NCBI GenBank assembly: GCA_030765685.1
Contig: JAVCCB010000013.1
Coordinates: forward strand, 4,761-68,760
Source of the DNA: Candidatus Tantalella remota
GTDB taxonomy: Bacteria > Omnitrophota > Gorgyraeia > Tantalellales > Tantalellaceae
Direction of reading: 5' to 3'
DNA: 64,000 nucleotides
The notes below the pieces were generated by a model, which was not told where the DNA came from, made no database searches, and saw nothing but the letters and a program-made list of their open reading frames with translations. This document shows positions 986 through 60,702 of the stretch, one piece after another (within the stretch, counting starts at the first letter, position 1; every line of letters begins with the position of its first letter). A program made the translations under genes and the position numbers.

Positions 986-1771
986 ATGAGAGATCTTACA
1001 AGAACGGGTATCAAGATAAATTCACGTATAGGCAAGGCAATACATGACTACGGCCTGATAGAGGAGGGTGACCGTATCCTCCTGGCTGTTTCTGGGGGGA
1101 AGGATAGCGTAACGCTTCTGCGTTTTCTGAAGATGATACAGGGGTGGTCACCGGTCAAATTTAAATTGTCAGCGGCACATATATGTACCGATTTTCAGTG
1201 CGGCGTGCGTGTCCACAAAACAGCGCTTACGGAGCTCTTTGACGAAGAAGAGCTTGAATACACTTTTCGTGACGTAAAGGTCCTGGACGAGAAAGGGAAA
1301 ACTTCCTGCTTCTGGTGTTCGTGGAACAAGCGTAAAGCCCTTTTTGAGATAGCCCAGGAAACAGGATGCAATAAAGTCGCTCTGGGTCACCACAAAGATG
1401 ATATCGTTGAAACACTTCTTATGAACCTGCTCTATAATGGTGAAATATCCGCGATCAATCCCAGGCAGGAACTTTTTGGCGGGAAGATAACCCTAATAAG
1501 ACCTCTTTGTTACGTAGAGGAGAGGTTGGTGAAGCAGTTTGTTAAGGAAAAGGGTTATCCCGAACAGCTCCGCACATGTCCGTTCGGCAATGAGTCGAGA
1601 AGGAAGTATATAAAGGATTTTATCCGCGAGACCGAAAAGACCACTCCGAAGGTAAATATTAAAGAAAATATTTTCAGAAGTGTCACCCGCATAAAAGAGG
1701 ATTATATAGATCTCAGATCTGGCGGGGAAGACTCTCCTGAAGCGACTCCTAAGGTTCTTCCATCAGAATAA
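986..1771 (+). CDS. ttcA: PP-loop ATPase, TtcA-like tRNA 2-thiocytidine synthetase family
   Basis: It carries the PP-loop motif SGGKDS (LLAVSGGKDSVTLL). CxxC-type cysteines (CTDFQCG, CFWCSW) and a downstream GHHKDD segment are typical of TtcA/TilS-like N-type ATP pyrophosphatases. Length is 261 aa. Confidence 0.7.
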   Translation: MRDLTRTGIKINSRIGKAIHDYGLIEEGDRILLAVSGGKDSVTLLRFLKMIQGWSPVKFKLSAAHICTDFQCGVRVHKTALTELFDEEELEYTFRDVKVLDEKGKTSCFWCSWNKRKALFEIAQETGCNKVALGHHKDDIVETLLMNLLYNGEISAINPRQELFGGKITLIRPLCYVEERLVKQFVKEKGYPEQLRTCPFGNESRRKYIKDFIRETEKTTPKVNIKENIFRSVTRIKEDYIDLRSGGEDSPEATPKVLPSE

Positions 1772-2007: not shown

Positions 2008-2185
2008 ACCCCCGCATTTATAACCTAAATTGTAAACTGGAAACTGTGAACAGTGCGAGATCTAGTAGCTTTTAGATCTGTGTTCAACATATGAGTGTTC
2101 TGTTTGCTGTTCACGGTTCACTACTTTTTTCATAAAAATAGGGTTGCCCCCGCAATTTTAACCAGGTTAGGTTCGACCGGGGTTT
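2008..2185. repeat. Conserved ~180 bp upstream element 'L', copy 1, directly 5' of giant ORF 1. It carries nested palindromes and a TAACCAGGTTA motif.
   Basis: Near-identical to 10248..10445. Shared core: tataacctaaattgtaaactg-aaactgtgaac-gtgcgagatctagtagctttt-g-gttcaacatatgagtgttctgttt-ctgtt-acggttcac ... cataaaaataggg..cccc..aat-taaccaggttag-ttcgacc-gg. It contains the inverted pair GTGAACAG/CTGTTCAC, the AGATCT palindromes and a G-rich palindrome before AACCAGGTTA. Confidence 0.6.
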
Positions 2186-2309
2186 GATGTGACGTAACTA
2201 CTTACCGTATAACTATTTACAAATAGTTAAGAAAAAAATAGCTATCAAGCTTTTTGTTGTGTTAACTCTACCTTTTTGTTATAATAATATATTAATAAAA
2301 AGGAGCGTT

Positions 2310-5300
2310 ATGTTTGATCTGTGGGACAAACATAGGAACTTAGTGAAAGTAACGGTAACTCTTGTAGTTTGCCTGTTTCTTTTGAATACATCTGGGGTCG
2401 CTCAGGAAGAAGTCCAATATCTCATAAATTCCAAAAACTCTATAGTAGATACCGATGATCTTTCTCCAGAATTACGTCTTACACAGGACGCTTTCAGGGA
2501 AAGATATCTTGCCTCCGCGACCACACTCGCGCATAGAGCTACCAACGATTATATACACAAACAGATCCCTAAGGATGGTCTCGCCAGTCTTAAGACACGG
2601 GGCGACTTTGTCTGGGTAAATGATAAAGATAAGCAGACGATAACAATAGTTTCCATCCCAGATCTTTTACGTAACACCGGACAGTTCGCCCATGTAGGGC
2701 TTGGCAGAAAGAACGGTATGCCGGTCATCTATGTTGACGACGATTATTTTTATAACGAAGCGGTTGTCGAACATGACAAGGATGAGATCTCAAAATGGGA
2801 AACAAAACGCCGTGAGCTTGGCAAAGATTATGAGGGGATGCGCGAATGGATACGGGGAAGCGATGAAGCCAAAAAGCTTGCCGAAGAATATCACGCTTCT
2901 TCCCGGGATCTTGGCGAACTCTATGGGGACGTGAGAGAGAACTACCGGGATCTTCTCGATTGGGACAATATCTATGCCGCGTATCTCGCTTTCGGTCTCG
3001 ATGAGGACGACAAGGACGTTAATATCGCGGCAAAGAAGGGCAAGACCAAAAGGGCGAGAAGTGAGAGAAGGCAGAAAGAACGCGAGGAAAGGAAGCTGGC
3101 GGAGAAGAAAGCCCGGACAAAAGCTTCGGACCAAAAAAAGAAGATCAAAAAAAGCCCGGAGGCCAGAAAGGTATCCTTTTATCGAAAAGTGAGTGCGGTT
3201 ATCTGGTTGGGGATGGTCGTTTTTGCTGTTGTTATCGTATTTAAAATAGTTGATGTGAAGAAGAAAGAGGCCATGGTCACCCAATGGAGGGAAAACGCCA
3301 GGGTTACTCAGAGTATGGAAGCTCTACATCATCTTAATGAGGATGAGGAGGCATTTGTTCAGAAAATAGTCGAAGTTTCTAAAGATTCGGACCCCAGGGA
3401 TCTAAAGGCTTCTGCCGAGGTATTTCAAAAGCTGCTGCAGTTTGCCGTAGGAAAAAATATTCGGGATCCGGAACTTCTATACAGAAAGGCATCGGGGCGC
3501 AGGGTTTTACGGGAGATGCTGCAGGGCCCGGGACCCTTAAAGGAGGTCGGTGGACACAGGACATTTCCATACGGAGACCTTGTGTACGTCAGTATGGGTG
3601 AATGGGCAGTGACCGATCATCTCGATAAAGGGTTCAAGCTGGCCACGTCGGCACTCGCCACCTGTAAAGGTGTGGTTCTTTATGATCCTGATACAAAAAC
3701 AGGGGCGCTATGCCACAATGATCTGGACTGGATATTGTCGGATACGATTGATGCTATGTTTACAAAAATGGGAACTCCCTCTAATGTTAAAGTCTGGGTG
3801 ACCGACAATGTTACATTAGAGGACCGCAAGGCGATCGCGGCTGTGTTGGGGAGTGATTCGTATGATTTTGCTCCCCTACCTAAAGCCTTTTTATTTAATA
3901 CTCGGACTGGGAAGGTAGAGTGTTTTGAGAATAGTAAAGACATGCTAAACGGGGGACAGAGAGTATTATCGGACCTGAAAAAGAGGATAGATCTGCATAA
4001 GACCCGTACCGCTCTTATGATTGAAAAGTGTTTTATGCGATATGACAGGGGCAATCCTCAGAAACAGGTTCGGGAAGGTGTTGATGGATATGCTGATGGC
4101 AGAATAGCCGGGATCCCGGCTGAAGACTTTAAGGAGATACGGGCAGTAGGGGATAAGCGTATTCGAAGGTTTCGTAAACAATTTATGGATAATTTTATTT
4201 TTGACCCGGTAGATGACAACCAGGGAATCGTATTTTTAAGGGCTCCGGAGGGGTTTAGATACAGGTGGTCTTATCACCCCGGATATGCGCGAACTATTAT
4301 TTTACGAGATGACGCGACAGAGGGGGATATTGCGAATGCCATGCAGGGTATTTTGGCGGATTCCTTCTGGCTCATAGGTATTCCGATAGAAGAATATACA
4401 GGGTTCATTGGCCAGTCAAAAATGGACCGAGGAGAATATGCTTCAAGGGGGGGGCGTACGGCATTTGGTGACGGCGAATTTTCAGAGGAAAGAAAAGTAT
4501 TTATTCTTGGACAGGAACATCTGGATCCCTACATGGTGCATTTGTTCGGGAAGCTTATATGGGAGGACAAGGACGGTCTCGAGAGTGGGCCTGATTCTTG
4601 GAAGAACCGAGAATGGCGGGGAAGTCTTGATATGATACTTGGGCACGAGGATATTCATCCCTATCTAGAAGTATATAGAAATGATGTGAAGTCGATAGAA
4701 CGGCTGGTCAGGGACAAGGGTAACCGGGTTACGGCATTGGGGTCGGAGAACAGTGGTAAATATGTTGCATGGCTGGAAAAAAGAGCTAAAAAGGATGAAC
4801 TGAAAGAGCTTGAGGGAATACTGCGCAAGAGAGGCGTAAAGGATTTCCGAAGTAGAGCGCATGAAATAATGTTGCTAACAGAGGGTCCTGTTGCGTATAT
4901 GCAGCTTACGCGGAATCCCGCGCTTAAGGGTATAAAAATTATAGGGTTAGATGACGAGAACTTAAAAAAACAGACTATGCGTGTCGTTGGCAATATGATG
5001 CGCGCTCTGGAGTTATTAAGTACGCTAACGCGTGCGAAATCCGATTTTGCCGCTTTTCACAAAAAAATTGAAGAAGTAACGGCAGAAAAGTACGGGGTGA
5101 TTTCAAAAAAAGAAAAGATGGAACTTTTAGCCTGGTTCAAGAACCCGGCAGAGAGGAAATTGGTGCAGGAAATACTGGACTCTTTGCAGGAGATGGTTCG
5201 TCTGGGGGAGGAAAGGAGTGTTATTTTCGCGAAGAAAATAGCCGCGGAAAAAGGGGACGTGGTAACATGGATGGGAAAAGCGCATATAGGGGGCACCCGT

Positions 5301-8300
5301 AGAACGCTTACCGCGAATAAGAATCAGAAATTCAAAGTTATATCTTCTCACGGAGCGTTTATACATGCAGGCCCGCGCGGGAAAAGAAAGACTATAGAAA
5401 GGGACGGAAAGTCCCAAAAGTCCGCCCCCAAAGGTTCTCCCGCGCGTCTCTTGATGACTCTGCGTGATAACCCCGAACTTTTGGTTGTTGCATGCTCCGA
5501 CACAGGTTTTACGGCTAAAGATATAACACCTCACAGACAGAAAATAGACGGCACATCATTTTCGAAGACTACCGTAAATAAGGAAATAGAAGTCCTTAAG
5601 GCTCTCGGGATATTGGTTCCCGCGGCCGATCGGTATCATTATCGTCTGTCTAACGGGATACGCGGCCCGGACTCAGGTTTCGTTAAGCGCCTTATCAACG
5701 CCGTTATCGAGATAGAACATCAGGTAGGCGAAAAAGGCGAGAAAAGACCGCTATACCGTTACAATATCCCCAAAGAAAAACGCCCTGCCGTAAAAAAACT
5801 TGTTAATAAGATCATAGATGATGAACTTCTTTTAGAGCTTCTTATCCAAGAAGAGGGTGATCTGCCGTCATGGATCGTGAATTCACTCTCTATGGTATAT
5901 AGGAGCATTGATGACGAAAAACAGAAAGCGCAGCTTCTGAACATTATAAAGGAAGGGTTTGATTATGATCTACTGATGAGTCAGCTCGAGGACCTTCGCG
6001 CGCCTCCGGGTGATGAAAGATATACCGAAGAGTTTGCCAGGGCTTATCGCGCCAGAGAACTCTTTAGCATGGCCTATGATTACAGCCATGGACCCGCGAT
6101 CTTCACCAAACAGGTTTTTCTTGACGCGATAGTAAAATTATTGAACAAACGGCCTTCCGCGATAAGGCTCTCAGACCTCAGCTATGACGACCTTTTGGCG
6201 CTTGCTCCGGACAGGGAAGATAATTATGAAAAGCTGCATATTACCAGAACTCATAAATATGCGCTTCTCATTGCGAAGGAACTGGGGCTGAGAAAAGAGC
6301 TTGTAGAGATGATCGGCCGGACAGCGGCTGTTCATGATATAGGAGGATTGGTAGGACCAATACAGGTAGGTGATATTGAAGCTACCATACGCCGTAGCAC
6401 CGAGGTAATTAAAGAATACGGCCTTCCGACTAAAAGTTCCCCGGAGAAGTCCCTTGCGGCGCTTGACGCTCTTATTAAGGAAAGACCGGAGTTGGCAAAA
6501 TACCGGCTTGGAGACGATAAAAAATTCTATTTGAGTATGGCGTACATGATCGCAGGGGCTTATGCCGCGGACGGCGCGCCAATAACCTGGGACGATCTTG
6601 AGAAGATCGCCATAGAGTTCAGTCATGAACGATTGGGCACGGACAGGCTACGACAAAACGGTATTATCCTGACACCTGCCGAAGAGTTTATTATAAACAA
6701 TCATTTCTTTTACCCGTCGGATATGATGGGTATCGAAGAGAAAGCAGTTGCCGAAGGCATGACAGCCGAAGAGCTTAAACTTTTACTGGATATTCTTATA
6801 TTTTGCGATATCTGGGAGAACGGCAACCACGCTACCCGGCTTAAATTACGGCGCAATATTGCATATCAGCCGTTCGTAAGGACATTCGAACTTTTTGGAC
6901 AGTTTTATGGAAACACCTCTGAGATTGGCCCGGAACCGGAACAGGCTATGATGCGTCTGGTCGCGAAAAAAGATCCCGCTGTGGTCGCTCTTCTAAAAGA
7001 GCAGCGGCCCGACGATTCGACAGACGCGATCAAGGCCGGAGAATACGATGAGGTAGCTGAGCTTTTGCGAGTTTCTGAAAGAAGGAACATACTGAATGTG
7101 CCTTCCGAAGAAATACTGGATATAAGTGACGGCTATGTCAGGGACCATATAGAGAGGGTCTCCAAGATCGCGCTCAGAATGGGGAGGGAAGTCGGAATTT
7201 CAGACCAGGAGATGAACATCCTGAGAGCGGCCGTGTACGGACATGACGCAGGTCCAAGGCATACACCGGAGGATTATGCTATTCTTGAAGGCTATGGGGT
7301 AGATTTTAAAAAGTCTAAGATCATGAAGCGCGAAGAGTTTATAAAATACGCGGAAGCTAAAAAAGGCTCCGCTCTTACCGAAGCACAGTTTTTTGTGCTT
7401 GATGATATATACAGGCACGGCGAGAATTTTGTGGAATATTTAAGCAGAAGGTACGTTGTCCCGCAGGAAGTAGACCTCCTAATACGGCACCATAAGGATT
7501 CTGTGGAATATGTTGAAAAGTTTGGCAGTATGAAAAATGAAATATCCGTTCCGGCGGAGCGGCTTCGCCTTCTTCTCGAGATACTGATAACGGCAGATAT
7601 GTTTGAAAACGCGAATAGCAAGCTTAAGATGCAGATGTCAGGGCAGGGGGATGTTAACTCCTTTATGCAGAGTTTTGAGGATCCGGATGTTTTCAGCATG
7701 TTATATCAAGGCAAGGGTATAACGGATATGACAGCAAGGGATATTCTTATTTCGCTTATAGTGGCAGAAGATGAAGAACTGTTAAAGGTGGTGTTTGAGG
7801 GCAGGGGCAAGAAAGGCCTTATGCCGGATGACCGCGTCTTCATAGAAGGGCAAAGAAGGCGAAAATCCGGGAGAGGCAAAGGCTCTCCCGCGGACCTTCT
7901 TGAGACAATAATGGATGATCCGCGGCTTTTTGACAAGGTGATAGGAGAAACGGGTATAACAGTTGACGGGATGACAGGGGTAAGAGGGTTTTCGCGAGGG
8001 GTTGTTCAGGAAGAGTTCAGGATACTTAAAAAATTAGGAGTTTTAGTTACTGGGCATAAGAGTCCTTTTATGCGATTTAATCATACGCTTAGAGCTATGC
8101 CTCTCGCAGACCTGAAATATACTATTAATGCCATAAAAGAGATCGAATATCAGGTGGGAAGGACTGGTGATAAGAGACCTTTGTACAGGGCGACAATTCC
8201 CAAAAGGGATATGGTGGCGGTACTGGAAATTGTAACGCGTGAGATGGGGTTTCGCCCCGAAAGAGCCGAGAGAGAGGGGGATAAAGACACTCTAGAACGA

Positions 8301-10142
8301 TTAAGGAAAGTTGTGAGGGTGCGCGAACCTTCGGTGCGAGATACAATAACCAGCGAGGAACAGATTATAGAGATCATAAATGAGGCTGTTGTTGCGCACG
8401 GGTCAGAAATTGTGCGGGCAGGAAGCATTGAGTCAATAGTTTCTTATCGGGTGCATGATCACAAGTATATGGAGAATCCTCTGACAATAAAGATGCTCAG
8501 GAGAGCGTTTTTGGCGGTGTCGACGCTTAAGGATGACGACGGGAACCATAAGTTTTTTGGTGGCAGTTGGGTGGAGGCAAGAAAGCGAGCCGGGGTAACA
8601 GACTTGATCTCAATGCCCCCCGGATATAGGGGAGTATGGGGCTGGTCTGAAGAGAGAGTGCTTGATGCTATCAAGGCGGCGTGTACAAAACATGGAGAGA
8701 AAGCAGCCGCGGGGGGCAATGTTCAGAAAATTAAAATAGGATGGAAAAGGCGGGCGACCGGGGTGGATCCGCTATTGAAGGAGCTGAAACAGGCGTACCA
8801 GGCGGTTTTTAATTCACGTACCAAGGAGCCTGGATACAGACTGTTTGATGGTGAATGGTCGATAGCAGTACGGGCAGCTGGTTTTTCGTATACGACTAAG
8901 AAAGATCTTGAGGTTTGGTCGGAGGCCAGTATCATTGAAGTTATTAAAAAAGCTGTAGATATGCACGGGGAGTCGATTTTGTTGGGGGTTCAGGGGATTC
9001 ATAAAAAATATAGTAAGGATTCAATTCCCGCTGAGCTTTCTCTTTTATATCGGGCCTGGGGGGCAAGTACGTATAAGAATTTGGGTGGCAGAGGAACACC
9101 GTCTTATTTTGATGGTACCTGGGCGGGTGCGGTCACCGCTGCGGGATATGACTATTATCGCATTAATTGTCCGAAAGGAAGTGGGGAATATATTTTGAGG
9201 AACATCAGAGATAACGAAGAGCTTTTACAAAAAGCATTGATGCCAAAGGGTATAAGAGTTTCTGCGGCCCCATCTTTTGAGAGGGGAATAAGAATGCTGG
9301 TCTCTGCCGGGATTTTTATCCCGGCCTCGGTACGTGGTAATTACAGGTTGTCCCCGATGATGCGAGGGGAGGATATAAATTATACAAAGACTATGATAAA
9401 TGCCCTGATAGATATGGGGTATAATATCAAGCTCGAGTACGAGGCTCCATATGTAGATTCCAGGTTGCAATGGCGACGGGCATTGAGACAAAAGACTCTT
9501 AACAAAGCACAGCTTAAAACTATAAAACAGCTTGCTAAGACCGTAGTGCTCGAACAAATAGGATATATGCAAAAAGCTGCTATACCGGAGGGTAAGGTGT
9601 TGTGGCATCTGATAGACAAAAGTATATTGTCGGAAGGGCAGGATTATTCTTTTGCCCAAAAAATAAACAATGCTTCCAGGAGTTCCGGTTCTCCGGAACG
9701 GATCTTTATAGTCGATGGGCGTTGGCCGATCAATGAGGTTATAGCGTCCATAAAAGAAGACTGCCCCAACGCGGTTTTTGACATAGCGCTTGGCGATCGG
9801 GAGAAAATATCTGAAGTGCCCGAATTGCAAGGAGTAGAGCAGATCAGGATGCTTGTCTTTGAGACTTCCGACGGTTCCGACTATACCCATTTGGAAGCTG
9901 TTGTGCAGGCCCTTAGAGCTCTTCACCTTTCAAAGAACAGGGTAATACCTCATCTTCTCGAGATATTGTCTGTCTTGAAGGGGAGCGCGTACAAGGGGGA
10001 AGTGCCGGATATGTCGGTTCTTGATGATCCCCGTGAATTTGCGAGACAGTTCATATTTATTTTGCCGCCGGTCAAGGGCTTGCCGATCGATGATATTCCG
10101 AAACTCAACGACCATCTTCTCAAAGTGCTCATAGCCGCGTAA
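2310..10142 (+). CDS. Giant membrane-anchored multidomain protein (~2610 aa). It has an N-terminal signal-like segment, a Lys-rich stretch followed by a TM helix, two HD-type phosphohydrolase domains, duplicated winged-helix-like modules and triplicated GxW..AAG modules.
   Basis: The ORF is continuous from 2259 to 10142. AAGGAG lies 5 nt before the ATG at 2310 (MFDLWDK...).
- Anchor: hydrophobic TVTLVVCLFLLNTSGVAQ; lysine-rich run then VSAVIWLGMVVFAVVIVFKIV.
- HD signatures: ...HKYALLIAKELGL..AAVHDIGG...LDILIFCDIWEN and ...HIERVSKIALRMG..AVYGHDAGP..HHKD..LEILITADMFEN.
- Possible metalloprotease motif: HExxH (ILGHEDIHPY).
- Duplicated ~130-aa winged-helix-like modules: ...SFSKTTVNKEIEVLKALGILV...EIEHQVGEKGEKRPLYRYNIPK and ...GFSRGVVQEEFRILKKLGVLV...EIEYQVGRTGDKRPLYRATIPK. 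Confidence 0.85.
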   Translation: MFDLWDKHRNLVKVTVTLVVCLFLLNTSGVAQEEVQYLINSKNSIVDTDDLSPELRLTQDAFRERYLASATTLAHRATNDYIHKQIPKDGLASLKTRGDFVWVNDKDKQTITIVSIPDLLRNTGQFAHVGLGRKNGMPVIYVDDDYFYNEAVVEHDKDEISKWETKRRELGKDYEGMREWIRGSDEAKKLAEEYHASSRDLGELYGDVRENYRDLLDWDNIYAAYLAFGLDEDDKDVNIAAKKGKTKRARSERRQKEREERKLAEKKARTKASDQKKKIKKSPEARKVSFYRKVSAVIWLGMVVFAVVIVFKIVDVKKKEAMVTQWRENARVTQSMEALHHLNEDEEAFVQKIVEVSKDSDPRDLKASAEVFQKLLQFAVGKNIRDPELLYRKASGRRVLREMLQGPGPLKEVGGHRTFPYGDLVYVSMGEWAVTDHLDKGFKLATSALATCKGVVLYDPDTKTGALCHNDLDWILSDTIDAMFTKMGTPSNVKVWVTDNVTLEDRKAIAAVLGSDSYDFAPLPKAFLFNTRTGKVECFENSKDMLNGGQRVLSDLKKRIDLHKTRTALMIEKCFMRYDRGNPQKQVREGVDGYADGRIAGIPAEDFKEIRAVGDKRIRRFRKQFMDNFIFDPVDDNQGIVFLRAPEGFRYRWSYHPGYARTIILRDDATEGDIANAMQGILADSFWLIGIPIEEYTGFIGQSKMDRGEYASRGGRTAFGDGEFSEERKVFILGQEHLDPYMVHLFGKLIWEDKDGLESGPDSWKNREWRGSLDMILGHEDIHPYLEVYRNDVKSIERLVRDKGNRVTALGSENSGKYVAWLEKRAKKDELKELEGILRKRGVKDFRSRAHEIMLLTEGPVAYMQLTRNPALKGIKIIGLDDENLKKQTMRVVGNMMRALELLSTLTRAKSDFAAFHKKIEEVTAEKYGVISKKEKMELLAWFKNPAERKLVQEILDSLQEMVRLGEERSVIFAKKIAAEKGDVVTWMGKAHIGGTRRTLTANKNQKFKVISSHGAFIHAGPRGKRKTIERDGKSQKSAPKGSPARLLMTLRDNPELLVVACSDTGFTAKDITPHRQKIDGTSFSKTTVNKEIEVLKALGILVPAADRYHYRLSNGIRGPDSGFVKRLINAVIEIEHQVGEKGEKRPLYRYNIPKEKRPAVKKLVNKIIDDELLLELLIQEEGDLPSWIVNSLSMVYRSIDDEKQKAQLLNIIKEGFDYDLLMSQLEDLRAPPGDERYTEEFARAYRARELFSMAYDYSHGPAIFTKQVFLDAIVKLLNKRPSAIRLSDLSYDDLLALAPDREDNYEKLHITRTHKYALLIAKELGLRKELVEMIGRTAAVHDIGGLVGPIQVGDIEATIRRSTEVIKEYGLPTKSSPEKSLAALDALIKERPELAKYRLGDDKKFYLSMAYMIAGAYAADGAPITWDDLEKIAIEFSHERLGTDRLRQNGIILTPAEEFIINNHFFYPSDMMGIEEKAVAEGMTAEELKLLLDILIFCDIWENGNHATRLKLRRNIAYQPFVRTFELFGQFYGNTSEIGPEPEQAMMRLVAKKDPAVVALLKEQRPDDSTDAIKAGEYDEVAELLRVSERRNILNVPSEEILDISDGYVRDHIERVSKIALRMGREVGISDQEMNILRAAVYGHDAGPRHTPEDYAILEGYGVDFKKSKIMKREEFIKYAEAKKGSALTEAQFFVLDDIYRHGENFVEYLSRRYVVPQEVDLLIRHHKDSVEYVEKFGSMKNEISVPAERLRLLLEILITADMFENANSKLKMQMSGQGDVNSFMQSFEDPDVFSMLYQGKGITDMTARDILISLIVAEDEELLKVVFEGRGKKGLMPDDRVFIEGQRRRKSGRGKGSPADLLETIMDDPRLFDKVIGETGITVDGMTGVRGFSRGVVQEEFRILKKLGVLVTGHKSPFMRFNHTLRAMPLADLKYTINAIKEIEYQVGRTGDKRPLYRATIPKRDMVAVLEIVTREMGFRPERAEREGDKDTLERLRKVVRVREPSVRDTITSEEQIIEIINEAVVAHGSEIVRAGSIESIVSYRVHDHKYMENPLTIKMLRRAFLAVSTLKDDDGNHKFFGGSWVEARKRAGVTDLISMPPGYRGVWGWSEERVLDAIKAACTKHGEKAAAGGNVQKIKIGWKRRATGVDPLLKELKQAYQAVFNSRTKEPGYRLFDGEWSIAVRAAGFSYTTKKDLEVWSEASIIEVIKKAVDMHGESILLGVQGIHKKYSKDSIPAELSLLYRAWGASTYKNLGGRGTPSYFDGTWAGAVTAAGYDYYRINCPKGSGEYILRNIRDNEELLQKALMPKGIRVSAAPSFERGIRMLVSAGIFIPASVRGNYRLSPMMRGEDINYTKTMINALIDMGYNIKLEYEAPYVDSRLQWRRALRQKTLNKAQLKTIKQLAKTVVLEQIGYMQKAAIPEGKVLWHLIDKSILSEGQDYSFAQKINNASRSSGSPERIFIVDGRWPINEVIASIKEDCPNAVFDIALGDREKISEVPELQGVEQIRMLVFETSDGSDYTHLEAVVQALRALHLSKNRVIPHLLEILSVLKGSAYKGEVPDMSVLDDPREFARQFIFILPPVKGLPIDDIPKLNDHLLKVLIAA

Positions 10143-10152
10143 AGGATAGCCT

Positions 10153-10243
10153 ATGTAGGACGCGAATTTTGAGAATTGTGAAGAGAGAATAGGAATTGCT
10201 ACACCATTCTCAATTCTCCATTCCCGGACACTCTGTTTTACGC
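10153..10243. repeat. Conserved ~95 bp downstream element 'R', copy 1, immediately 3' of giant ORF 1. It is an imperfect hairpin.
   Basis: tgtaggacgcgaattttgagaattgtgaagagagaataggaattgctacaccattctcaattctccattcccggacactctgtttta matches 15212..15307 over nearly its full length. Inverted arms are GAGAATTG/CAATTCTC. Confidence 0.6.
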
Positions 10244-10247
10244 CAAC

Positions 10248-10445
10248 TACCCCCTCATGTATAACCTAAATTGTAAACTGTAAACTGTGAACGGTGCGAG
10301 ATCTAGTAGCTTTTGGAGCTGTGTTCAACATATGAGTGTTCTGTTTACTGTTTACGGTTCACTGCTCCATTTTTTCACTTTTTTACATAAAAATAGGGGG
10401 TACCCCCGTAAATATAACCAGGTTAGTTTCGACCAGGTTAAAAGC
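10248..10445. repeat. Upstream element 'L', copy 2, directly 5' of giant ORF 2
   Basis: Roughly 90% identical by eye to 2008..2185, over ~180 bp. It includes the GGGGGTACCCCC palindrome and two TAACCAGGTTA-type motifs (ataaccaggttag, gaccaggttaaaag). Confidence 0.6.
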
Positions 10446-10567
10446 TATTCTAAGTCATTATTACAGAAAGACTTATATGAGGTTAAAAATGCAATAGTTA
10501 TAACTATTTATTGACCTAACTACCTTTTTGATGGTATAATGGCGCCATATTAATTTTATTAACGCAC

Positions 10568-13500
10568 ATGTATATAAGTAGCGTATATGGAGGTACGTCG
10601 GGAAAGATGGCATCAAACAAGGTATCACAGCACATTATTACAAATGTAATAACAAATATTATTATTATTACCTTCACCCTTACAAGCATTCCTTGTCTTG
10701 AAGAGGCACACGCTCTTTCGCCGTGGGCCGGTTCACAAAGAGTGGCTGTACGCCGTGCCATGCTCGATCGCGCCATAGATAATGCCAAGGTAAGCTATGC
10801 TGAAGAAGGCGATCCTCTATTGAAGGATACGAACGGTCTTCTTCTTTCGCATGGCAAAATACTTCTTTCACCTGAACTCAAAAACGACTCCCTAAAAAAA
10901 CTTAGAGTTATTTTTCATGAAGAGATCGAAGCAGTGATGCAGATCCTTGCCAGGCAGGATCGCGCCAGATACAGTCATCTTATAAATATGATCCTTTCGG
11001 ACAACGCTATAGTGACTGCCTACAGGAATGCTTTTCCTTCAAAAAACACAGATATTGTTTCCGATGAAATGCTTTGCAACGATATCATCGCCAGCGCTTT
11101 CGAGCTTCTGCTTCTTTTTGAGGAGAGCGCTGTTTCATCCAAAGAAATAACAAAAGAGGAAAGAGCGTTTATCGAAATTATTCGTCCGGCGATCGACGCC
11201 AACAAGCACAGTTACTTTACCGGGATGTTCTGGGACCAGTACGCTCGCGAGCTCCACATACGTGCGGCCATAGCTAATGGCCAGAAGTTCACCCAGGCCC
11301 GGCAGGGCACTGGTGAAGTGGGTCTGGTTGTCGGCCAGGACGATGAGAGCGTGGTGCAGGCCGATGTCGCCGCCTCTTTGGCCGAGGAGGAAGCTTTAAT
11401 TGAAAAGCTGAGGGAGGATCCACTGAGCTCTATCTTCGGACGTGATGCATATTTAGAGAACATGCTATTGGAGTTCCTGAGCCAAAATGGCGGAAGAGCC
11501 GCTTTTGATGAAGTAAGGGCGGCAATGGTAGAGTATCCGGAGAGGATAGTAAGGGTTGTTTTGCACGACCTTGTTAAAAACGGTCGTGTAGAGATAGAGG
11601 CGCGTCCTGGCAGGCCGGGGATATTAAATCTTCTTGCGGGAGGGGGAGGGGGAGATGTAAAAGTATCGCAGGAAAGGGAAAACAAACATCGTGATGAGAT
11701 CAAGAAGAGGTTCGAGGATTATGAAGGAGAAATATACTATCCCACGCCATGCGCTGATTTTGGGTCTTTTGTGATACTCGTCGCTATGTTTCCGAAAGTC
11801 AGCAGATTCGTTTACAGGGACGGATTCTATATGGATGAAGTGTCTTACGATATACCCTCCCCGAAGGACATAAACCAGGTCTCTGCGTTTCTCGGAGAGA
11901 AGCTGGCCAGGCTTGAAAAGGGTCAGGTAGCCACGCACGAGATACTGGTGGTAGACGACAGAACACTTGATATCAAAGTGTCATTTAAAAAAGCTTTGCC
12001 TTACGCGGGTAGAACTGTCCACATCAGGTATGAAGTCGGAGATATTTTTGAGAATGACAACACGTACGGCATGGTATATGTTCGGCAGCCGGGACTTGCC
12101 GGTCAAATAAGCGCGAAACCGGCTTTCTGGGAAAAGATGAAAGCTAACACTTCTAAAAATGGTCTGATCCTTGTCAGCAGTGAGTTGACTCATTTTCCAT
12201 GGTCAAGAGGCCTGGAAAGTCTCCTTGATATAAAATACGCTCCAGGAGACTGGATCACCGTTTACCGGGATCCGGCGGAGCCTTCCACGGACGAACGGGA
12301 CTCCAGGGAAGGCACCTCTTCCCGTCAAGGGGCGGGAGAAGAAGATCCGGGAATTGCGCCACAAAAGGATATGCCGTACAAAAAATGGTATGTTACCGCC
12401 CGGCATCTCTATGATGAGACAGGCAAAAAGGTGGCTGTTGAACTTGCACGACGGTCTCTCGCTGATGTGTTTGCCGTGTATTTCTACATGGAATTGGATT
12501 ATTACGAGGGAACCGGACGGCGTATAGTTGCTCATATTCCCGCGGCACCTTTTTATTTTTTCAGTATAGCATCGAAGAGCAAGTTCAAGCACGTCAATGT
12601 GGTCATAGGTAATGTTTTGTCGAACGCCCTTAAGTATGGAGGAACCGAAGATGTTACAGTCAGGCTCCAGCCGCGAGGAGCGGATCTTCATATAGAGATC
12701 GAAGACCACGGCAGGGGGATACCAGCAGAAGAGATAGGGCATCTGACAGAGCTGGAATATAGAGGGAGCAATGTCGGGGATAAATATGGATGTGGCGACG
12801 GGCTCGCGCTCACAAAAGAGTACTTAGAAAAGTTAAATGCCACAATGGATATCAGGTCTGAAGTCGGGAAAGGGACCATTGTATCCATAGATATTCCGGA
12901 TGCGTTGGAGCGCAGCCTATTGCCGGATGCGGAGACTGTACAGCATCTTATCGCAAGGCAGGCCTCCGCCGCCGGCACTAAAGCTCGACAGGGAAATGGC
13001 GAGAACGATATTTCTTCTGAGGATAAAGGGGCAACGACCGACGGTGTTTCAAATATGGAATTATATTTGTCCGAGGTGCTTTCGGTGCAGAATGGAACGT
13101 TTATGCTGCTTGTGGAACGTTTTTCGAGAGGCGCCAAAATATCGATGAAAGAAGCGAGCTGGTTAGCCGCGTTGCTTGTATGTGATGTGGAAAAACTCAC
13201 ACCGCTAGATCAAATGAAGGTTGGCGAAAGGCTGGAATATCTTGAGTTCACCATTAAAATATTAGAGGATCACTTAAAAGGTAAGCCTACTTCACGAAAC
13301 ATCAGCCTTCAGATGATCAAACGCGCGAAACTCGCGTTTGAAAACAAAGGTGCCTTCGCGCGCCAGGGAGAAGGAGAGGAAGATCCGTCGTTTGCCGCTG
13401 ATCTTTACGAGAGAACCGATGCCCAGCTCGTTTTCCCGGCCGGGTTCCGGGCCGACGATGCCAGGAGAAAAGAGCAGCTCCATGCGACTATCACAGAGCT

Positions 13501-15202
13501 TTATGAACTGCTGAAATATGAAAAAGAAACCGTATCTTTTCCGGGAGAACCTCTCATGCGGATAGATCTGGGATCGGATAGCGTAACTCTTTCGGATGGC
13601 GTAGTGTTGAGGGACATAGATATTTACGACAATCGCTTTTGTCCCGTATTTTTAGTGCCGGGCGAAGGACGGTATGTAAAAGTGGACTTCAATCAGAATC
13701 CGCGTTTTTACGGATTGTACAAGACTCTATTTTATCTTCTGAAGGGGAATGAGCTGGATCTTATTTTTCCTTTTGATTCTGATCCATCTCCAAAGGGCGA
13801 CGGGGCGTGGGATTCGTGGCATACTGATATGGATTGGCAATTTGTTGGCCGGACAAATCCCTATCCAAATGAGATAGACCCGCTTGTGGTCGAAGCGGTA
13901 ACCAAGGCCATTTTCGCCCTCGGCCTGGACGGAGATCCGGAGGGGATAACAGTGCTGGATATATTCGGTGGTTCCGGACGAATGATAGAAAAGTTGGATG
14001 GGAATATTTCAAAGAGGTTTGATGGTCTGGGGGCAGAAAAACCGGATATGAAATATTTCGTAATAGATCGTAATAAAAGCAACATTGATCACGCCCATGC
14101 GCGTTTAAGTGGACTTGATGTAACTATACTTAAGCGTGACATGACAGTTGTTGATAATATAGCCGAGGAGATAGGAAACGTGGCCCATATCGTGGTATGT
14201 GAGGGCGGCCTGACGTATCAGGTTGTAAACCGGGACGAGGCCGAACAGATCGCCGGGAGGGTCTACGACGTTCTTGTTCCCGGTGGAGTTTTTGTGGTAA
14301 CCGGATATAACCCAAGTCTTTTATCCGCCCCTGATTTTGAAAAAATAGGATTCCGTGTTTTGAATAAAAGTATTCCCAAAAATACTTTGAATTATGACAA
14401 AACTGCCCAATTCTATGTTTTGATGAAGCCTTTATCTCAGGTGACGGACAAGAAAAATGCGGATGATGTTGATGAAATAAGAAGTGAGCCTATGCGGATA
14501 AACTCCGTAGAAGATATTCCGTTCGAGGACGCTGTCCAGGCGCTTGCCGCCACTGTGGAAGACGAATGCGCGGGGTATTCCGCTCATTTAAGAGGTAAGT
14601 TGACAAATGATGAGCGGTCAGGACAGAGTCTCATACTTTATGCCGATGATATGCTCGAAGGCGCGGCCATACTTGACTTGAACAGGACTTTAAAAAATAC
14701 CCTCGGGAGCGGCAACATCTTCGCAGGAGGTAAGATAATCATTTTCGCGAGAGAGAAATCTAACGGTATTATACTGGAGAAGATGATCAACGACGCAGCT
14801 CCATCTGTGGAAACTCTGATGATCAGCACGGAAGAGCTTGCCCGTCGTAAGAATATTTGTGAAGGGGAAGAGGATGAGATAAAGGCGCTTGTCCAGTTCG
14901 CTAAAACAAAAGGGGCGAATGATATACTCGCCCTTATAAAGGGTCCGGTAAAAGACCTTGATACTGTTGAAAAACTTGCTCCGCTTGCGAAAAAACTGAA
15001 CGTGCCTGTAGTCATCATGGAGGGAGGAGAACGGGTGGTTTACTCTTTTGCCCAGGCCATAGCGTTGGCGATCACCATGAAGCAGGACGAAGGCGCGAAA
15101 GGGTGGCTTATAGTACTCCCGCCGGTCCGCCGTATTACCGACGACATGGAATTGCAGTACCAGCAGTATCACGCGTCACGCATGGCTCGCGTGGCAGTAT
15201 AA
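10568..15202 (+). CDS. Giant multidomain protein (~1530-1544 aa): N-terminal hydrophobic anchor, four RQGxGE(E/N)D motifs, a GHKL/HATPase_c-type ATPase domain, and a C-terminal Rossmann-fold SAM-dependent methyltransferase-like domain.
   Basis: The ORF is continuous. An alternative start at 10607 gives MASNKVSQHIITNVITNIIIITFTLTSIP.
- HATPase_c boxes: N box VIGNVLSNALKYGG; G1 IEDHGRGIP; G2 GCGDGLALTKEYLEKLNA ... GKGTIVSIDIP.
- MTase motif I: VLDIFGGSGRMIEKL (a DxFxGSG, RsmD-like Rossmann signature), followed by acidic D/E at the end of beta-2 (FVIDRN).
- Repeats: ARQGTGEVG, SRQGAGEEDPG, ARQGNGENDISSED, ARQGEGEEDPSFAAD. Confidence 0.85.
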   Translation: MYISSVYGGTSGKMASNKVSQHIITNVITNIIIITFTLTSIPCLEEAHALSPWAGSQRVAVRRAMLDRAIDNAKVSYAEEGDPLLKDTNGLLLSHGKILLSPELKNDSLKKLRVIFHEEIEAVMQILARQDRARYSHLINMILSDNAIVTAYRNAFPSKNTDIVSDEMLCNDIIASAFELLLLFEESAVSSKEITKEERAFIEIIRPAIDANKHSYFTGMFWDQYARELHIRAAIANGQKFTQARQGTGEVGLVVGQDDESVVQADVAASLAEEEALIEKLREDPLSSIFGRDAYLENMLLEFLSQNGGRAAFDEVRAAMVEYPERIVRVVLHDLVKNGRVEIEARPGRPGILNLLAGGGGGDVKVSQERENKHRDEIKKRFEDYEGEIYYPTPCADFGSFVILVAMFPKVSRFVYRDGFYMDEVSYDIPSPKDINQVSAFLGEKLARLEKGQVATHEILVVDDRTLDIKVSFKKALPYAGRTVHIRYEVGDIFENDNTYGMVYVRQPGLAGQISAKPAFWEKMKANTSKNGLILVSSELTHFPWSRGLESLLDIKYAPGDWITVYRDPAEPSTDERDSREGTSSRQGAGEEDPGIAPQKDMPYKKWYVTARHLYDETGKKVAVELARRSLADVFAVYFYMELDYYEGTGRRIVAHIPAAPFYFFSIASKSKFKHVNVVIGNVLSNALKYGGTEDVTVRLQPRGADLHIEIEDHGRGIPAEEIGHLTELEYRGSNVGDKYGCGDGLALTKEYLEKLNATMDIRSEVGKGTIVSIDIPDALERSLLPDAETVQHLIARQASAAGTKARQGNGENDISSEDKGATTDGVSNMELYLSEVLSVQNGTFMLLVERFSRGAKISMKEASWLAALLVCDVEKLTPLDQMKVGERLEYLEFTIKILEDHLKGKPTSRNISLQMIKRAKLAFENKGAFARQGEGEEDPSFAADLYERTDAQLVFPAGFRADDARRKEQLHATITELYELLKYEKETVSFPGEPLMRIDLGSDSVTLSDGVVLRDIDIYDNRFCPVFLVPGEGRYVKVDFNQNPRFYGLYKTLFYLLKGNELDLIFPFDSDPSPKGDGAWDSWHTDMDWQFVGRTNPYPNEIDPLVVEAVTKAIFALGLDGDPEGITVLDIFGGSGRMIEKLDGNISKRFDGLGAEKPDMKYFVIDRNKSNIDHAHARLSGLDVTILKRDMTVVDNIAEEIGNVAHIVVCEGGLTYQVVNRDEAEQIAGRVYDVLVPGGVFVVTGYNPSLLSAPDFEKIGFRVLNKSIPKNTLNYDKTAQFYVLMKPLSQVTDKKNADDVDEIRSEPMRINSVEDIPFEDAVQALAATVEDECAGYSAHLRGKLTNDERSGQSLILYADDMLEGAAILDLNRTLKNTLGSGNIFAGGKIIIFAREKSNGIILEKMINDAAPSVETLMISTEELARRKNICEGEEDEIKALVQFAKTKGANDILALIKGPVKDLDTVEKLAPLAKKLNVPVVIMEGGERVVYSFAQAIALAITMKQDEGAKGWLIVLPPVRRITDDMELQYQQYHASRMARVAV

Positions 15203-15211
15203 TAGCAGCTA

Positions 15212-15307
15212 ATGTAGGGCGCGAATTTTGGGAATTGTGAACTGGGAATAGGGAATTGCTTACTATTCTCAATTCTCTATTCCCAATTCCCGGACACTCT
15301 GTTTTAC
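15212..15307. repeat. Downstream element 'R', copy 2, immediately 3' of giant ORF 2
   Basis: tgtagggcgcgaattttgggaattgtgaactgggaatagggaattgcttactattctcaattctctattcccaattcccggacactctgtttta, the same element as 10153..10243. Confidence 0.6.
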
Positions 15308-15419
15308 CAGCAGCTAAAGCTTTGTCCATGATCGCCGCTCAAATTCCTTCACAAAACCGTTAATACGGTGTAAAATACGCTACAAACCTGGTAAACATTT
15401 AATTAACAAGGAAATCATA

Positions 15420-15575
15420 GTGATTATTATACAAATAGGTGCTGTCGCGTTGCTTGGTGTCCTGATAGGGCTGTGCTATTATTTTGACAGGCAGGCGATG
15501 ATCCTTCCGGCGAGCCTGACATTTATTGCCATCGTTGCCTATACTTTCGCGCTTACAGTGTTCCTGCAGCCGTAA
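15420..15575 (+). CDS. Small hydrophobic membrane protein (51 aa, GTG start). It is absent from the ORF track because it is short.
   Basis: Hand translation gives VIIIQIGAVALLGVLIGLCYYFDRQAMILPASLTFIAIVAYTFALTVFLQP* with two predicted TM segments. aaGGAaatcatag precedes the GTG. It lies between the R element and the HD-GYP gene. Confidence 0.3.
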   Translation: MIIIQIGAVALLGVLIGLCYYFDRQAMILPASLTFIAIVAYTFALTVFLQP

Positions 15576-15642: not shown

Positions 15643-17091
15643 TTGGATAACAAAAAACGCTATTTCGTGAGTCTGAAGACAAAAGCGGCGCTCATGGCGC
15701 TTATCGCGGGACTCGTTATTATTTACCTTAGCAACTTTTACTTTTCCGCAAAAGCGGAAAAGATCCTTTACCGATATAGCCTCCAGAGGATGAACGCTTT
15801 AGCGCAGCTCTTTGCCCTTAATGCCAGCCAGGGGAAACTTTTGCAGAACAGGGGAATAGCGGAACGTTTGTGTTACAGCGTCAACGAAGACCCTGATGTG
15901 TTATTCGCGCTTGTTATAGATGAGGACAAAAAAATATTTGCGGGCAATTACGCGGGGATCCCGGGAAGTTATTTTAAGCGCATAACGGAAGTCCTGAGTT
16001 CCAGCGAAAAAGATTTTTCGAAGAAGACGGCTATCCTTGAAGAGGAGACGGGCAACGGCGGAGGACTTATGATCCAGCCGATATATTCCGCGAGTATGAA
16101 AGCCACGGTAGGAAGCGGTTTTATTGAAGACCAGGGGTCTGTGAGGAAGATACTTGGATACAGCGTTATCGCGTTCAGCCTGGAAAATATCAAGACCGAG
16201 ATAAGGGCTATGCGGACCAAAATAGTGGCTCTTTTATCCGTAGCCCTTGTCCTGATAATAATAGTCTTTTACGCCTTGGTAACGCTCCTTACCCGCAACC
16301 TGAGACGTCTCTTGGAAGCTGCCTCCCGCCTTGAGAAGGGCGATCTCACAGCGCGTGTTAATATCCAGTCACATGATGAGATCGAAGAACTCGCTGACGG
16401 GTTTAACAAAATGGCGGGTCAGATGGAGGACTCGAACACCGAACTTAAAGACGCGCTTGTGAAGATACAACAGTCTTCACTTGAAACCATTTACAGGCTT
16501 TCGCTTGCGGCGGAATACCGTGATTGGGATACCGGTCATCATCTTTTGCGGATGAGCCATTATGCGAAAGCTATTGCCAAAGAGATGGACCTTGAGCCAA
16601 AGTATACTGAAGCTATCCTTTATGCGTCACTCATGCACGATGTCGGGAAGATAGGCATTCCTGATAACATCCTGCGAAAACCGGGAAAACTTACGCCTCA
16701 GGAATGGGATGTGATGAAGCAGCACACGGTCATTGGGGCGCAAATATTGGAGAGGTCTGAAGCTGAATTCATAAAGATGGCAGAAGGCATAGCTTTATCA
16801 CATCATGAGCGTTGGGACGGGAGCGGTTATCCGCGGGGGCTTAAAGGGGATGAGATCTCTCTCGCGGCGAGGATAGTAGCTGTTGCCGATGTTTTTGAAG
16901 CAATAACTTCCAAGAGGCCTTACAAAGAGGCTTTTTCTGTAGAGACCGCGTTCAACATAATAAAAGAAGGACGAGGGACGCATTTTGATCCAACGGTCGT
17001 CGATGCTTTCTTCGAGATCAAAGATGAGATCCTTAATATAAAGAATCGGGATTACCATCCGGAAGACCCCCGGATACACGACGAAAAATAA
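15643..17091 (+). CDS. HD-GYP domain c-di-GMP phosphodiesterase with an N-terminal periplasmic sensor and a HAMP linker
   Basis: Two TM helices bracket a ~170 aa extracytoplasmic region. HAMP-like segment: LLEAASRLEKGDLTARVNIQSHDEIEELADGFNKMAGQM. HD-GYP signatures: LMHDVGKIGIPDNILRKPGKLT...HHERWDGSGYPRGL. TTG start at 15643. Confidence 0.8.
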   Translation: MDNKKRYFVSLKTKAALMALIAGLVIIYLSNFYFSAKAEKILYRYSLQRMNALAQLFALNASQGKLLQNRGIAERLCYSVNEDPDVLFALVIDEDKKIFAGNYAGIPGSYFKRITEVLSSSEKDFSKKTAILEEETGNGGGLMIQPIYSASMKATVGSGFIEDQGSVRKILGYSVIAFSLENIKTEIRAMRTKIVALLSVALVLIIIVFYALVTLLTRNLRRLLEAASRLEKGDLTARVNIQSHDEIEELADGFNKMAGQMEDSNTELKDALVKIQQSSLETIYRLSLAAEYRDWDTGHHLLRMSHYAKAIAKEMDLEPKYTEAILYASLMHDVGKIGIPDNILRKPGKLTPQEWDVMKQHTVIGAQILERSEAEFIKMAEGIALSHHERWDGSGYPRGLKGDEISLAARIVAVADVFEAITSKRPYKEAFSVETAFNIIKEGRGTHFDPTVVDAFFEIKDEILNIKNRDYHPEDPRIHDEK

Positions 17092-23220: not shown

Positions 23221-23310
23221 AAATCGTCATCCCCGAATGCGACCGAGGGGCATAGGTCCCCGAGGAAGTGCCGAATGCCACAGGGCTTCGGCCTCTGAGC
23301 GGGGATCCAA
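23221..23310. repeat. ~90 bp intergenic repeat, copy A (aatcgtcatccccg...cggggatccaa), with 8-bp terminal inverted ends
   Basis: aaatcgtcatccccgaatgcgaccgaggggcataggtccccgaggaagtgccgaatgccacagggcttcggcctctgagcggggatccaa matches 30950..31039 by eye, in the same orientation. Inverted ends are ATCCCCG/CGGGGAT. Confidence 0.6.
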
Positions 23311-23427
23311 CAAAAACATTATTTATATTTCATTCCCGCTTCCGCGGGAATGACGTCTTTCCATCATCCATTCCCAATTCGCTATTCCCACCTTTACCTT
23401 AACCTGTATTACATGTAAAATGCATGT

Positions 23428-24321: not shown

Positions 24322-24623
24322 CGCGACACGATGTTGTCGCTTGTTTATGATAAGATGGAAAATAGAAGTGTGTTGATAGTTCGTAGTTTATAGTTTGTTG
24401 ATCCAGACAATGAACTATAAACAAAAAATAATGAACACGTTATTCAGATCCAACCTGGCAGAAACTAACCTGGTTAAGGCTTTATGAAAGAGTTAGGGTT
24501 AGTTCCTGGTATGCGCCCGGTAACCGTGTAGAAACTAACCAGGTTATAAATGCGGGGGTAGTGAATTTCACAATAGCCTGAATTCTTGCGCTATTGACCA
24601 GCAAAGGGTTATAATACCTATCA

Positions 24624-30949: not shown

Positions 30950-31039
30950 AAATCGTCATCCCCGCATGCGACCGAGGGGCAAAGGCCCCGAGGAAGTGTC
31001 GAATGCCAGAGGGCTTCGACCTCTTAGCGGGGATCCAAT
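30950..31039. repeat. ~90 bp intergenic repeat, copy B, in direct orientation with 23221..23310. Together they bracket DUF1848-addB-addA.
   Basis: aatcgtcatccccgcatgcgaccgaggggcaaaggccccgaggaagtgtcgaatgccagagggcttcgacctcttagcggggatccaat. Confidence 0.6.
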
Positions 31040-60580: not shown

Positions 60581-60702
60581 ATTGTGAACAGTAAACAGAA
60601 TTTGGGAAGAGGGAATGGAGAATGGAGAATGGGGAATAGTGGCACAATTCCCTGTTCCCTATTCACGATTCCCAAAAATTGTGCCCAGGATTATCTATAA
60701 CT

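Follow-up and report, generated by a model that had tools for sequence, protein, structure and literature searches.

Hairpin repeats and a conserved promoter-like box flank two unrelated giant genes of 'Candidatus Tantalella remota' (Omnitrophota)

Families of repetitive extragenic palindromic (REP) elements and bacterial interspersed mosaic elements (BIMEs) run to tens to hundreds of copies per genome and often lie just past stop codons, and several families may be present in a single genome; in E. coli, REP elements stabilise the mRNA upstream of them and bind proteins. The BOX elements of Streptococcus pneumoniae and the Correia elements of Neisseria, the latter of the miniature inverted-repeat transposable element (MITE) type, are found between the end of one gene and the promoter of the next, where they can affect expression. 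Here we compare with such elements two repeats, L and R, that flank two tandem giant open reading frames (ORFs), ORF1 and ORF2, in a 64-kb stretch of DNA (the window, to which all window copy counts below are limited) from one metagenome-assembled genome (MAG), 'Candidatus Tantalella remota', of the phylum Omnitrophota. An earlier note, made from the sequence alone, had read this L-gene-R-L-gene-R array as modular gene cassettes, or as paralogous regulatory packaging, for giant surface or membrane proteins. We think it probable (roughly 60%) that L and R are instead lineage-specific mosaic intergenic hairpin repeats, REP/BIME-, BOX- or MITE-like in kind, and not gene cassettes, and that each giant gene is driven from a conserved promoter box. 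The shared element that matters more is this box, which links giant genes of unrelated families across the phylum.

The genus Tantalella was first described from Ace Lake, Antarctica (PMC8542988). Proteins far larger than those considered here have been reported from the phylum as Archaeovorins (West-Roberts et al. 2023 preprint, doi 10.1101/2023.11.21.568195); these have at least 30,000 amino acids (aa), many transmembrane segments and HEAT, TPR and glycosyltransferase (GT) arrays, and the preprint is silent on promoters and flanking repeats. Promoters and intergenic repeats are likewise not mentioned in the Omnitrophota papers and preprints that we searched. For comparison we used 40 relatives' loci (L001-L040), some of them located through homologues of ORF1 and ORF2 on other Omnitrophota contigs and the others (L015-L040) by a scan of JGI metagenomes for the promoter box.

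Anatomy and copy distribution of the L and R repeats

All parts of the array lie on the same strand in the order L-ORF1-R-L-ORF2-R, and L2 begins 4 nt past the end of R1, much as the earlier note had it (Table 1). Repeat finding and alignment confirmed that the two giant ORFs share their flanks, and the identities that had been estimated by eye at about 90% held up well. L1 and L2 align with 161 matches, 18 mismatches and 15 gap columns (89.9% identity without gaps, 83% with gaps), and with E 6e-54 they form the longest of the repeat pairs found when the window was compared with itself by BLAST. The R cores (10154-10243 and 15213-15308) align with 81 matches, 7 mismatches and 10 gap columns (92% without gaps, 82.7% with gaps; E 3.5e-19 in the same self-comparison). 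The identity profile runs at 90-92% in L and R and at 67-77% in the promoter box, and is random past it; the sharp drop at the edges of L and R indicates that they are discrete units and not parts of a segmental duplication. The outer flanks of the array are dissimilar, and local alignments for an R remnant before L1 or an L remnant after R2 stayed at chance level, which rules out the remnants of a third R-L unit. The proteins encoded between these flanks have no similarity to each other in BLASTP (best E 0.37), and profile-profile comparison of the conserved C-termini of their two families was also negative (probability 0.4%, E 0.17). What is conserved is thus the DNA of the flanks and not the cargo, as had been proposed.

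L is itself a mosaic of a 17-nt word present twice, a hairpin built of heptads and a TAACCWGGTTA palindrome. The 17-nt word CCCCCGYAWWTWTAACC occurs four times in the window, at 2009-2025 and 2147-2163 in L1, at 10403-10419 in L2 and again 5' of an addB-like gene. The hairpin is imperfect and 80-90 nt long, its arms are GTAAACW/GTGAACW heptad runs (about 2039-2118 in L1) and a T-run comes after it; it folds with -28.9 kcal/mol in L1 (z -2.6) and -27.1 kcal/mol in L2 (z -1.95). A 14-nt indel separates the two copies of L, together with substitutions that in L2 disrupt the inner hairpin of L1, and their longest common exact stretch is about 28 nt. The palindrome (TAACCAGGTTA at 2159-2169 in L1; 10415-10425 in L2) is found six times in the window against an expectation of 0.01 (starts at 2159, 10415, 24466, 24536, 57563 and 57598) and is often extended to TAACCWGGTTAGTTTC. 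Every copy is intergenic and 5' of a promoter: those of the two giant genes, that of the addB-like gene (two copies) and those of a divergent gene pair at 57.4-57.7 kb (two copies). The palindrome may be a protein-binding site; in the relatives none was found near the promoter box, to which it is not linked there. A small ORF within L was considered and rejected on direct reading, as the ATG at 2092 is followed by a stop after 14 codons in L1 and after about 60 codons in L2, and the frame is not conserved.

Most of R forms a palindrome whose outer ends pair through G-U pairs only, and R begins 4-5 nt after the stop codon of both giant ORFs. The third copy, R3, matches R2 at 78.9% over 76 nt (BLASTN, E 9.6e-13); a common long hairpin is retained in R1, R2 and R3, and in R2 it reaches -44.4 kcal/mol (z -5.7). 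The 3' end of R reads ..CTGTTTTAC, and the T6 of the L hairpin lies only several bases beyond its stem; a scan for the intrinsic-terminator consensus flagged neither the R nor the L hairpin. Rfam 15 gave no match at gathering score over the whole window, in keeping with the earlier statement that the arrangement resembles no described system, and at a permissive E <= 5 there were only chance-level matches over L and R.

These repeats have much company in the window. Its self-comparison by BLAST gave 17 significant repeat pairs, all of them intergenic, in at least seven families (Table 1). The L heptad and the GGGAAT/GAGAAT theme of R recur in recombined form at 900-960, 31680-31790, 57440-57520 and 60580-60690, and L modules occur in other combinations at 24466-24560, 31680-31790, 57440-57610 and 60580-60690; the window holds two copies of L, three of R and four to six of the modules. 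The notion of cassettes specific to giant or surface-protein genes finds no support in these observations, since the third R lies behind a GNAT gene, L modules occur elsewhere and the window holds its own array of repeat families. Ordinary REP-like repeats without a preference for giant genes, the outcome that the earlier note had named as speaking against cassettes, are on the scale of 64 kb largely what was found.

Absence of the repeats from relatives and conservation of the box

Neither L-proper nor R has a BLASTN match in any of the 40 relatives' loci. Exact core words of L had 0 matches in GTDB genomes and JGI metagenomes, and those of L and R had 0 matches in IMG/VR (all of these being collections without the source genome). 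The search of related genomes that had been suggested for further copies was thus negative in the relatives' loci, and the additional R came from the window itself. The absence of both repeats from the relatives argues that they are dispensable for the giant genes, and on these sequence comparisons L and R appear to be young and lineage-specific.

The relatives show what such a locus looks like when it is without them. In L001 and L002 an orthologue of the PP-loop gene that precedes our array (63% aa identity in L001) is followed by a 164-nt gap and then by an ORF2-family gene; the gap contains the box and has no ORF1, L or R, and the 60 nt 5' of the ORF2-family gene are 80% identical to window positions 10482-10541. 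In L009 an ORF1-family gene (C-terminus '...KTAA*') stands directly 5' of an ORF2-family gene, so the tandem pairing is not peculiar to the Tantalella remota genome. Relatives have the same habit with different repeats. A repeat X follows directly after three stop codons in L009 (153-327, 9439-9626 and 11171-11287), and heptad hairpins lie behind the giant gene of L005. A stretch within X, CCCTATGTAGGGCC, looks like the 5' end of R (AGCYTAWTGTAGGRCGCG), and in the same locus a 180-nt piece of a downstream gene has been copied into the gap behind the giant gene (6097-6275 and 10450-10648). The ORF2-family gene of L003 (= L026) is tightly bracketed, together with its promoter, by inverted repeats of 385-450 nt with 85-91% identity (104-488 / 5148-5553); such an arrangement might represent a unit that inverts or moves, or simply two local copies of a repeat. 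Members of the giant families have different gene neighbourhoods in different genomes, and in L011 two ORF2-family genes stand in tandem (593-1210 and 6221-6475). A universal post-stop hairpin behind giant genes was considered by folding the 130 nt past the stop codon in 12 relatives' genes; strong hairpins lie behind only some of them, so that R is not part of a conserved package.

The promoter box behaves differently from the repeats. It is a sigma-70-like element of about 60 nt, located about 40 nt 3' of each L, of the form GTTAAGAA..CTTTTTnTTGACCTAAC-N17-TATAAT (also written GTTAAGAAnAAAATAGnTA..CTTTTTnTTGACCTAAC-N17-TATAAT). In the window P1 is followed by the Shine-Dalgarno sequence and ATG of ORF1, and P2 is the top sigma-70-like match of its region (11 of 12 positions). 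The boxes of L006, L008, L009 and L013 match P1 at 74-84% identity, and that of L001/L002 matches P2 at 80%; across genomes the box keeps 74-84% nucleotide identity where the orthologous proteins are only about 40-65% identical. Its sub-motif CTWTTTNTTGNNNTAAC occurs in the 64 kb only at 2250-2266 and 10504-10520 (0.01 expected), and exactly once in each of 9 of the first 14 relatives' loci, always directly 5' of a giant gene of either family. The 'paralogous regulatory packaging' that had been offered as one reading of the array therefore holds by way of the box 40 nt 3' of each L, and not by way of L and R.

A scan of JGI metagenomes with a stricter two-gap pattern of the box returned 26 loci. 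About four of these were chance-like, two were ended at once by the end of the contig and four ended within 92-308 codons with a membrane-anchor N-terminus already visible, leaving 16 that were informative; in 11 of these the ORF behind the box has 765 to more than 2764 aa. By BLASTP, the proteins behind metagenome boxes belong to at least nine mutually unrelated families. The N-termini of box-headed proteins are alike: a basic stretch leads into a hydrophobic helix, which often reads ..VCLFLxN.., and a TLxP-like motif comes next. Since signal-anchors look similar in any event, this likeness counts as weak evidence. In many relatives the ATG lies 6-10 nt past the -10 box, which suggests leaderless mRNAs for such genes. 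A pair of genes for an extracytoplasmic function (ECF) sigma factor and a zf-HC2 anti-sigma factor stands just 3' of the giant gene in L001 (13675-14714) and L006 (10679-11711) and is a candidate regulator for the box.

The two giant genes of the window encode members of separate protein families. ORF1 is 100% identical to P0026, a 'hypothetical protein, Candidatus Tantalella remota', and has a signal-anchor at its N-terminus. Of the tandem HD domains and membrane anchor that had been assigned to it, the anchor stands; Pfam found a single HD domain (residues ~1612-1732) at 22.4 bits, right at the threshold, did not detect a second and found no other domain. ORF2 is 100% identical to P0001, a 'Candidatus Tantalella remota' entry from the NCBI MAG that also holds P0026, on a contig of 94.7 kb, and here the predicted GHKL ATPase and methyltransferase-like parts were both borne out, as a histidine-kinase-type HATPase_c domain (residues 676-778 of the 1544-aa form; Pfam, E 1.8e-18) and a methyltransferase-like stretch at about 1106-1240. 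We also considered a defence system for this combination and rejected it, as PADLOC gave only a methyltransferase-level match (mad2, 7e-9) and nothing system-specific. In the ORF1 family (P0026-P0034), ~250 aa at the N-terminus and ~330 aa at the C-terminus are conserved around a variable, enzyme-bearing middle, and in the ORF2 family (P0001-P0006) the same holds for ~230 aa at either end; none of these terminal regions has a Pfam match. The middles differ wholly between members of both families and include deaminase, PHP, methyltransferase, metallophosphatase, GHKL, amylase/glycosyltransferase and NUDIX/PEP-utilising domains. AlphaFold models of the C-terminal regions of the two families (pLDDT 84 and 76) show generic Rossmann-like folds, and neither had an informative structural neighbour. 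A short 'GSPADLLETIRDN...' module is repeated up to three times in ORF1-family members, and P0031 of that family has its N-terminal module twice.

Possible origins and roles of the array

If L and R are mosaic intergenic hairpin repeats, each giant gene would be its own transcription unit, driven by the conserved sigma-70-like box, and its coding region would end a few bases before a long hairpin. At this post-stop position R would probably serve as a terminator or as a hairpin that protects the 3' end, as is the case for REP elements. L-proper would occupy the gap between the end of the upstream gene and the box, where it may insulate the giant promoter from read-through; alternatively, with its hairpin, T-run and palindrome, it may carry a protein-binding site. 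The copies would have reached equivalent gaps recently and at about the same time, perhaps by transposition-like copying or by gene conversion, and the L-gene-R-L-gene-R pattern would reflect two neighbouring genes, alike in their type of promoter and of gap, that each gained or exchanged the same two repeats. The divergence of 8-10% within each pair supports such a recent spread.

Several observations weigh against this interpretation. The R1 and R3 hairpins show only a modest gain over shuffled sequence (z -1.2 and -1.9), and no L or R hairpin has a classical U-tract directly at its stem, so that terminator activity is putative. Only R2 has a clean and exact 9-bp flanking direct repeat, AGCAGCTAA (15204-15212 and 15309-17), whereas direct reading gave no clean target-site duplication at R1, R3, L1 or L2; nor did we find terminal inverted repeats in L, whose terminal words are direct and not inverted. 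Full-length L is present in the window only twice, each time ~40 nt 5' of the promoter box of a giant gene, so that intact L may yet be tied specifically to these genes. Finally, the substitution divergence of the L pair and that of the R pair are alike, which, with the abutment of R1 and L2, would also fit a single recombination of a whole unit.

This last point leads to the reading closest to the earlier note, in which a cassette-like system would recombine at copies of L or R, so that entire promoter-gene units (L-gene-R) would be cut out or put in and giant genes shuffled as modules. The tandem order with its 4-nt R1-L2 spacing, the matching divergence of the two pairs, the gap of L001/L002, where no ORF1 separates the PP-loop gene from the ORF2 homologue, the differing neighbourhoods of family members across genomes, the 9-bp direct repeat around R2 and the inverted repeats of L003 could all be taken in its favour. 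We nevertheless regard it as distinctly unlikely: there is no recombinase among the 34 window ORFs scanned, R3 adjoins a small GNAT gene with no L near it, L modules are found singly elsewhere, the relatives have no copies of L or R, and units of 5-8 kb with their own promoters are unlike known cassette systems. Moreover, L009 has the same adjacency of ORF1-family and ORF2-family genes with unrelated repeats, so the adjacency is older than L and R. A broader version, which we hold to be unlikely, makes the box and the N-terminal signal-anchor a portable 'head' of a phylum-wide regulon of giant, multi-enzyme membrane proteins that have nothing else in common, whole promoter-gene units being exchanged by way of lineage-specific repeats (L and R here, X in L009, the 400-nt inverted repeats in L003); if this were true, the cassettes would be real, as expression units mobilised by recombination. 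A local explanation, also unlikely, is that duplication or gene conversion copied L and R for the sake of regulator sites (TAACCWGGTTA, for example) that co-control both genes, so that L would be functional and not selfish. It would fit the constant 40-42 nt between the end of L and the start of the GTTAAR box in both copies, the similar divergence of the L and R pairs, and the strongly over-represented palindrome, always intergenic and 5' of promoters. That palindrome also occurs ahead of addB and between the genes of an unrelated divergent pair, however, and the 14-nt indel and hairpin-breaking substitutions between L1 and L2 are not what this explanation calls for; relatives with the same box have neither L nor the palindrome nearby, so L is dispensable for the function of the box.

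That L is a transcribed structured RNA (a leader, riboswitch or small RNA gene) and R its 3' counterpart might be thought from the long hairpins into which both fold and from the terminator-like T-run after the L hairpin. This is very improbable, since the conserved promoter lies 3' of L and the ATG of many relatives is so close to the -10 box that no room is left for a leader, and since L is not conserved in relatives, has no conserved ORF by direct reading, has no Rfam match even at E <= 5 and, when folded whole, does no better than shuffled sequences (z -0.85 and -1.7). An assembly artefact, in which mis-joins at the repeats created the array, deserves mention because the MAG was built from short reads and assemblers may be misled by repeats, and the earlier note had raised it too; we give it almost no credence. 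The copies differ at ~10% of positions and share no exact stretch longer than ~28 nt, neither ORF lacks the N- or the C-terminal end of its family, and both junctions are found independently in relatives (PP-loop gene to ORF2 family in L001; ORF1 family to ORF2 family in L009). Thus we continue to favour mosaic intergenic hairpin repeats as the explanation of L and R, next to a promoter box of wider distribution.

Setting of the array and comparison with known systems

The remainder of the window is ordinary chromosome, with genes for an AddAB-like helicase-nuclease, phosphoglucomutase, galactokinase, glycerol kinase, asparaginase, a secretin and a radical-SAM enzyme. Among the 34 window ORFs scanned, none encodes a transposase, integrase or other recombinase, a result that, with the absence of L and R from the relatives' loci, told further against the cassette reading of the earlier note. 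No tRNA or transfer-messenger RNA (tmRNA) gene, possible markers of an integration site, was found in the window. The HD-GYP gene said to come next downstream is present and also encodes a HAMP domain; it is the next substantial gene, and a 51-codon ORF at 15420-15575, for a two-helix membrane peptide, intervenes between it and R2. Elsewhere, 61118-61417 encodes a secreted-looking peptide of 99 aa with repeated SCGKGSCG motifs, directly 5' of a radical-SAM/SPASM enzyme gene (61459-63078); the two look like the precursor and maturase of a ribosomally synthesised and post-translationally modified peptide (RiPP).

Table 1. Features of the window and promoter boxes of relatives (window positions unless a relative's locus is named)
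Feature	Position	Strand	Remarks
PP-loop ATPase gene	986..1771	+	Pfam ATP_bind_3, E 1.2e-17; upstream of array; synteny anchor
L1	2007..2185	+	upstream repeat; ~40 nt 5' of box P1
Box P1	2226..2285	+	GTTAAG 2226-2231; extended -35 TTGTGTTAAC 2257-2266; -10 TATAAT 2280-2285
ORF1	2259/2310..10142	+	2610 aa from ATG 2310; Shine-Dalgarno 2301-2305
R1	10148..10243	+	post-stop hairpin repeat with GAGAAT/GGGAAT-type words, after ORF1
L2	10248..10441	+	second copy of L; starts 4 nt past R1 end
Box P2	10482..10540	+	GTTAAA 10482-10487; -35 TTGACCTAAC 10511-10520; -10 TATAAT 10535-10540
ORF2	10568/10607..15202	+	1544/1531 aa; ORF opens 10568, ATG 10607
R2	15207..15308	+	post-stop hairpin repeat after ORF2
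HAMP + HD-GYP gene	15643..17091		next substantial gene after ORF2
L sub-modules outside L	24466..24560	-	TACCCCCGCATTTATAACC and two TAACCWGGTTAGTTTC units, just 5' of addB-like gene (24624)
R3	about 60590..60690	-	diverged third copy, opposite orientation; ~10 nt past stop of 141-aa GNAT gene (60155-60580)
Repeat family	23221-23336 / 30950-31064		intergenic, hairpin-rich, short repeated words
Repeat family	44350-44441 / 45034-45130 / 50312-50399		intergenic, hairpin-rich, short repeated words
Repeat family	31628-31766 / 57558-57456 (inverted orientation)		intergenic, hairpin-rich, short repeated words
Repeat family	824-904 / 39161-39239 / 40776-40817		intergenic, hairpin-rich, short repeated words
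Repeat family	41988-42041 / 51601-51655 / 31184-31236		intergenic, hairpin-rich, short repeated words
Box, L001	5828-5887
Box, L003	471-528
Box, L006	1-60
Box, L008	~4984-5045
Boxes, L009	~476-536, ~6360-6420

L and R would extend the range of mosaic intergenic hairpin repeats to a phylum for which we found none described. The box offers a sequence handle on the true starts of giant genes in fragmented assemblies and helps to define a possible giant-protein regulon and to trace its regulator, and a shared promoter makes the mode and timing of giant-gene expression in Omnitrophota approachable by experiment.

When set beside regulon-type promoters, the box is similar in being a motif of ~60 nt, in which a GTTAAG block precedes an extended -35, that heads the genes of large proteins anchored by an N-terminal helix; it differs in that these genes belong to unrelated protein families. 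The proteins themselves share with the Archaeovorins their phylum, an N-terminal membrane or signal region and strings of enzyme domains (HATPase_c, NUDIX, PPDK-like, glycosyltransferases), but at 2610 aa (ORF1) and 1531 aa (ORF2) they are far under the size criterion, their domain content is sparse and their conserved termini have no Pfam match. Integrons also have genes in one orientation separated by structured, imperfectly palindromic DNA, the attC sites. Their cassettes, however, are mostly promoterless and short and end in attC, whereas the units here are 4.6-7.8 kb long with a conserved promoter of their own; in addition, no IntI is encoded in the window, no RYYYAAC/GTTRRRY core sites are evident and R also follows a small ordinary gene.

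BOX and Correia elements come nearer, as L and R too are modular intergenic repeats of about 100-200 nt with stable hairpins, but they have no sequence similarity to those elements and come from a different phylum; in L we found neither terminal inverted repeats nor a target-site duplication, and only R2 has a 9-bp direct repeat. To REP elements and BIMEs the likeness lies in extragenic imperfect palindromes, in the position of R just past stop codons, in the mosaic arrangement with other motifs and in the presence of several families. The units of L and R are longer (95-195 nt), their arms have heptad or hexamer themes and no sequence relation to REP, and no RAYT (IS200/IS605-like) transposase was seen among the 34 window ORFs scanned, a weak Rfam match to IS605-orfB-II (E 0.18) not being significant. 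On their sequence features L and R seem best filed among the mosaic intergenic hairpin repeats, a known kind of element, and not as a new cassette system.

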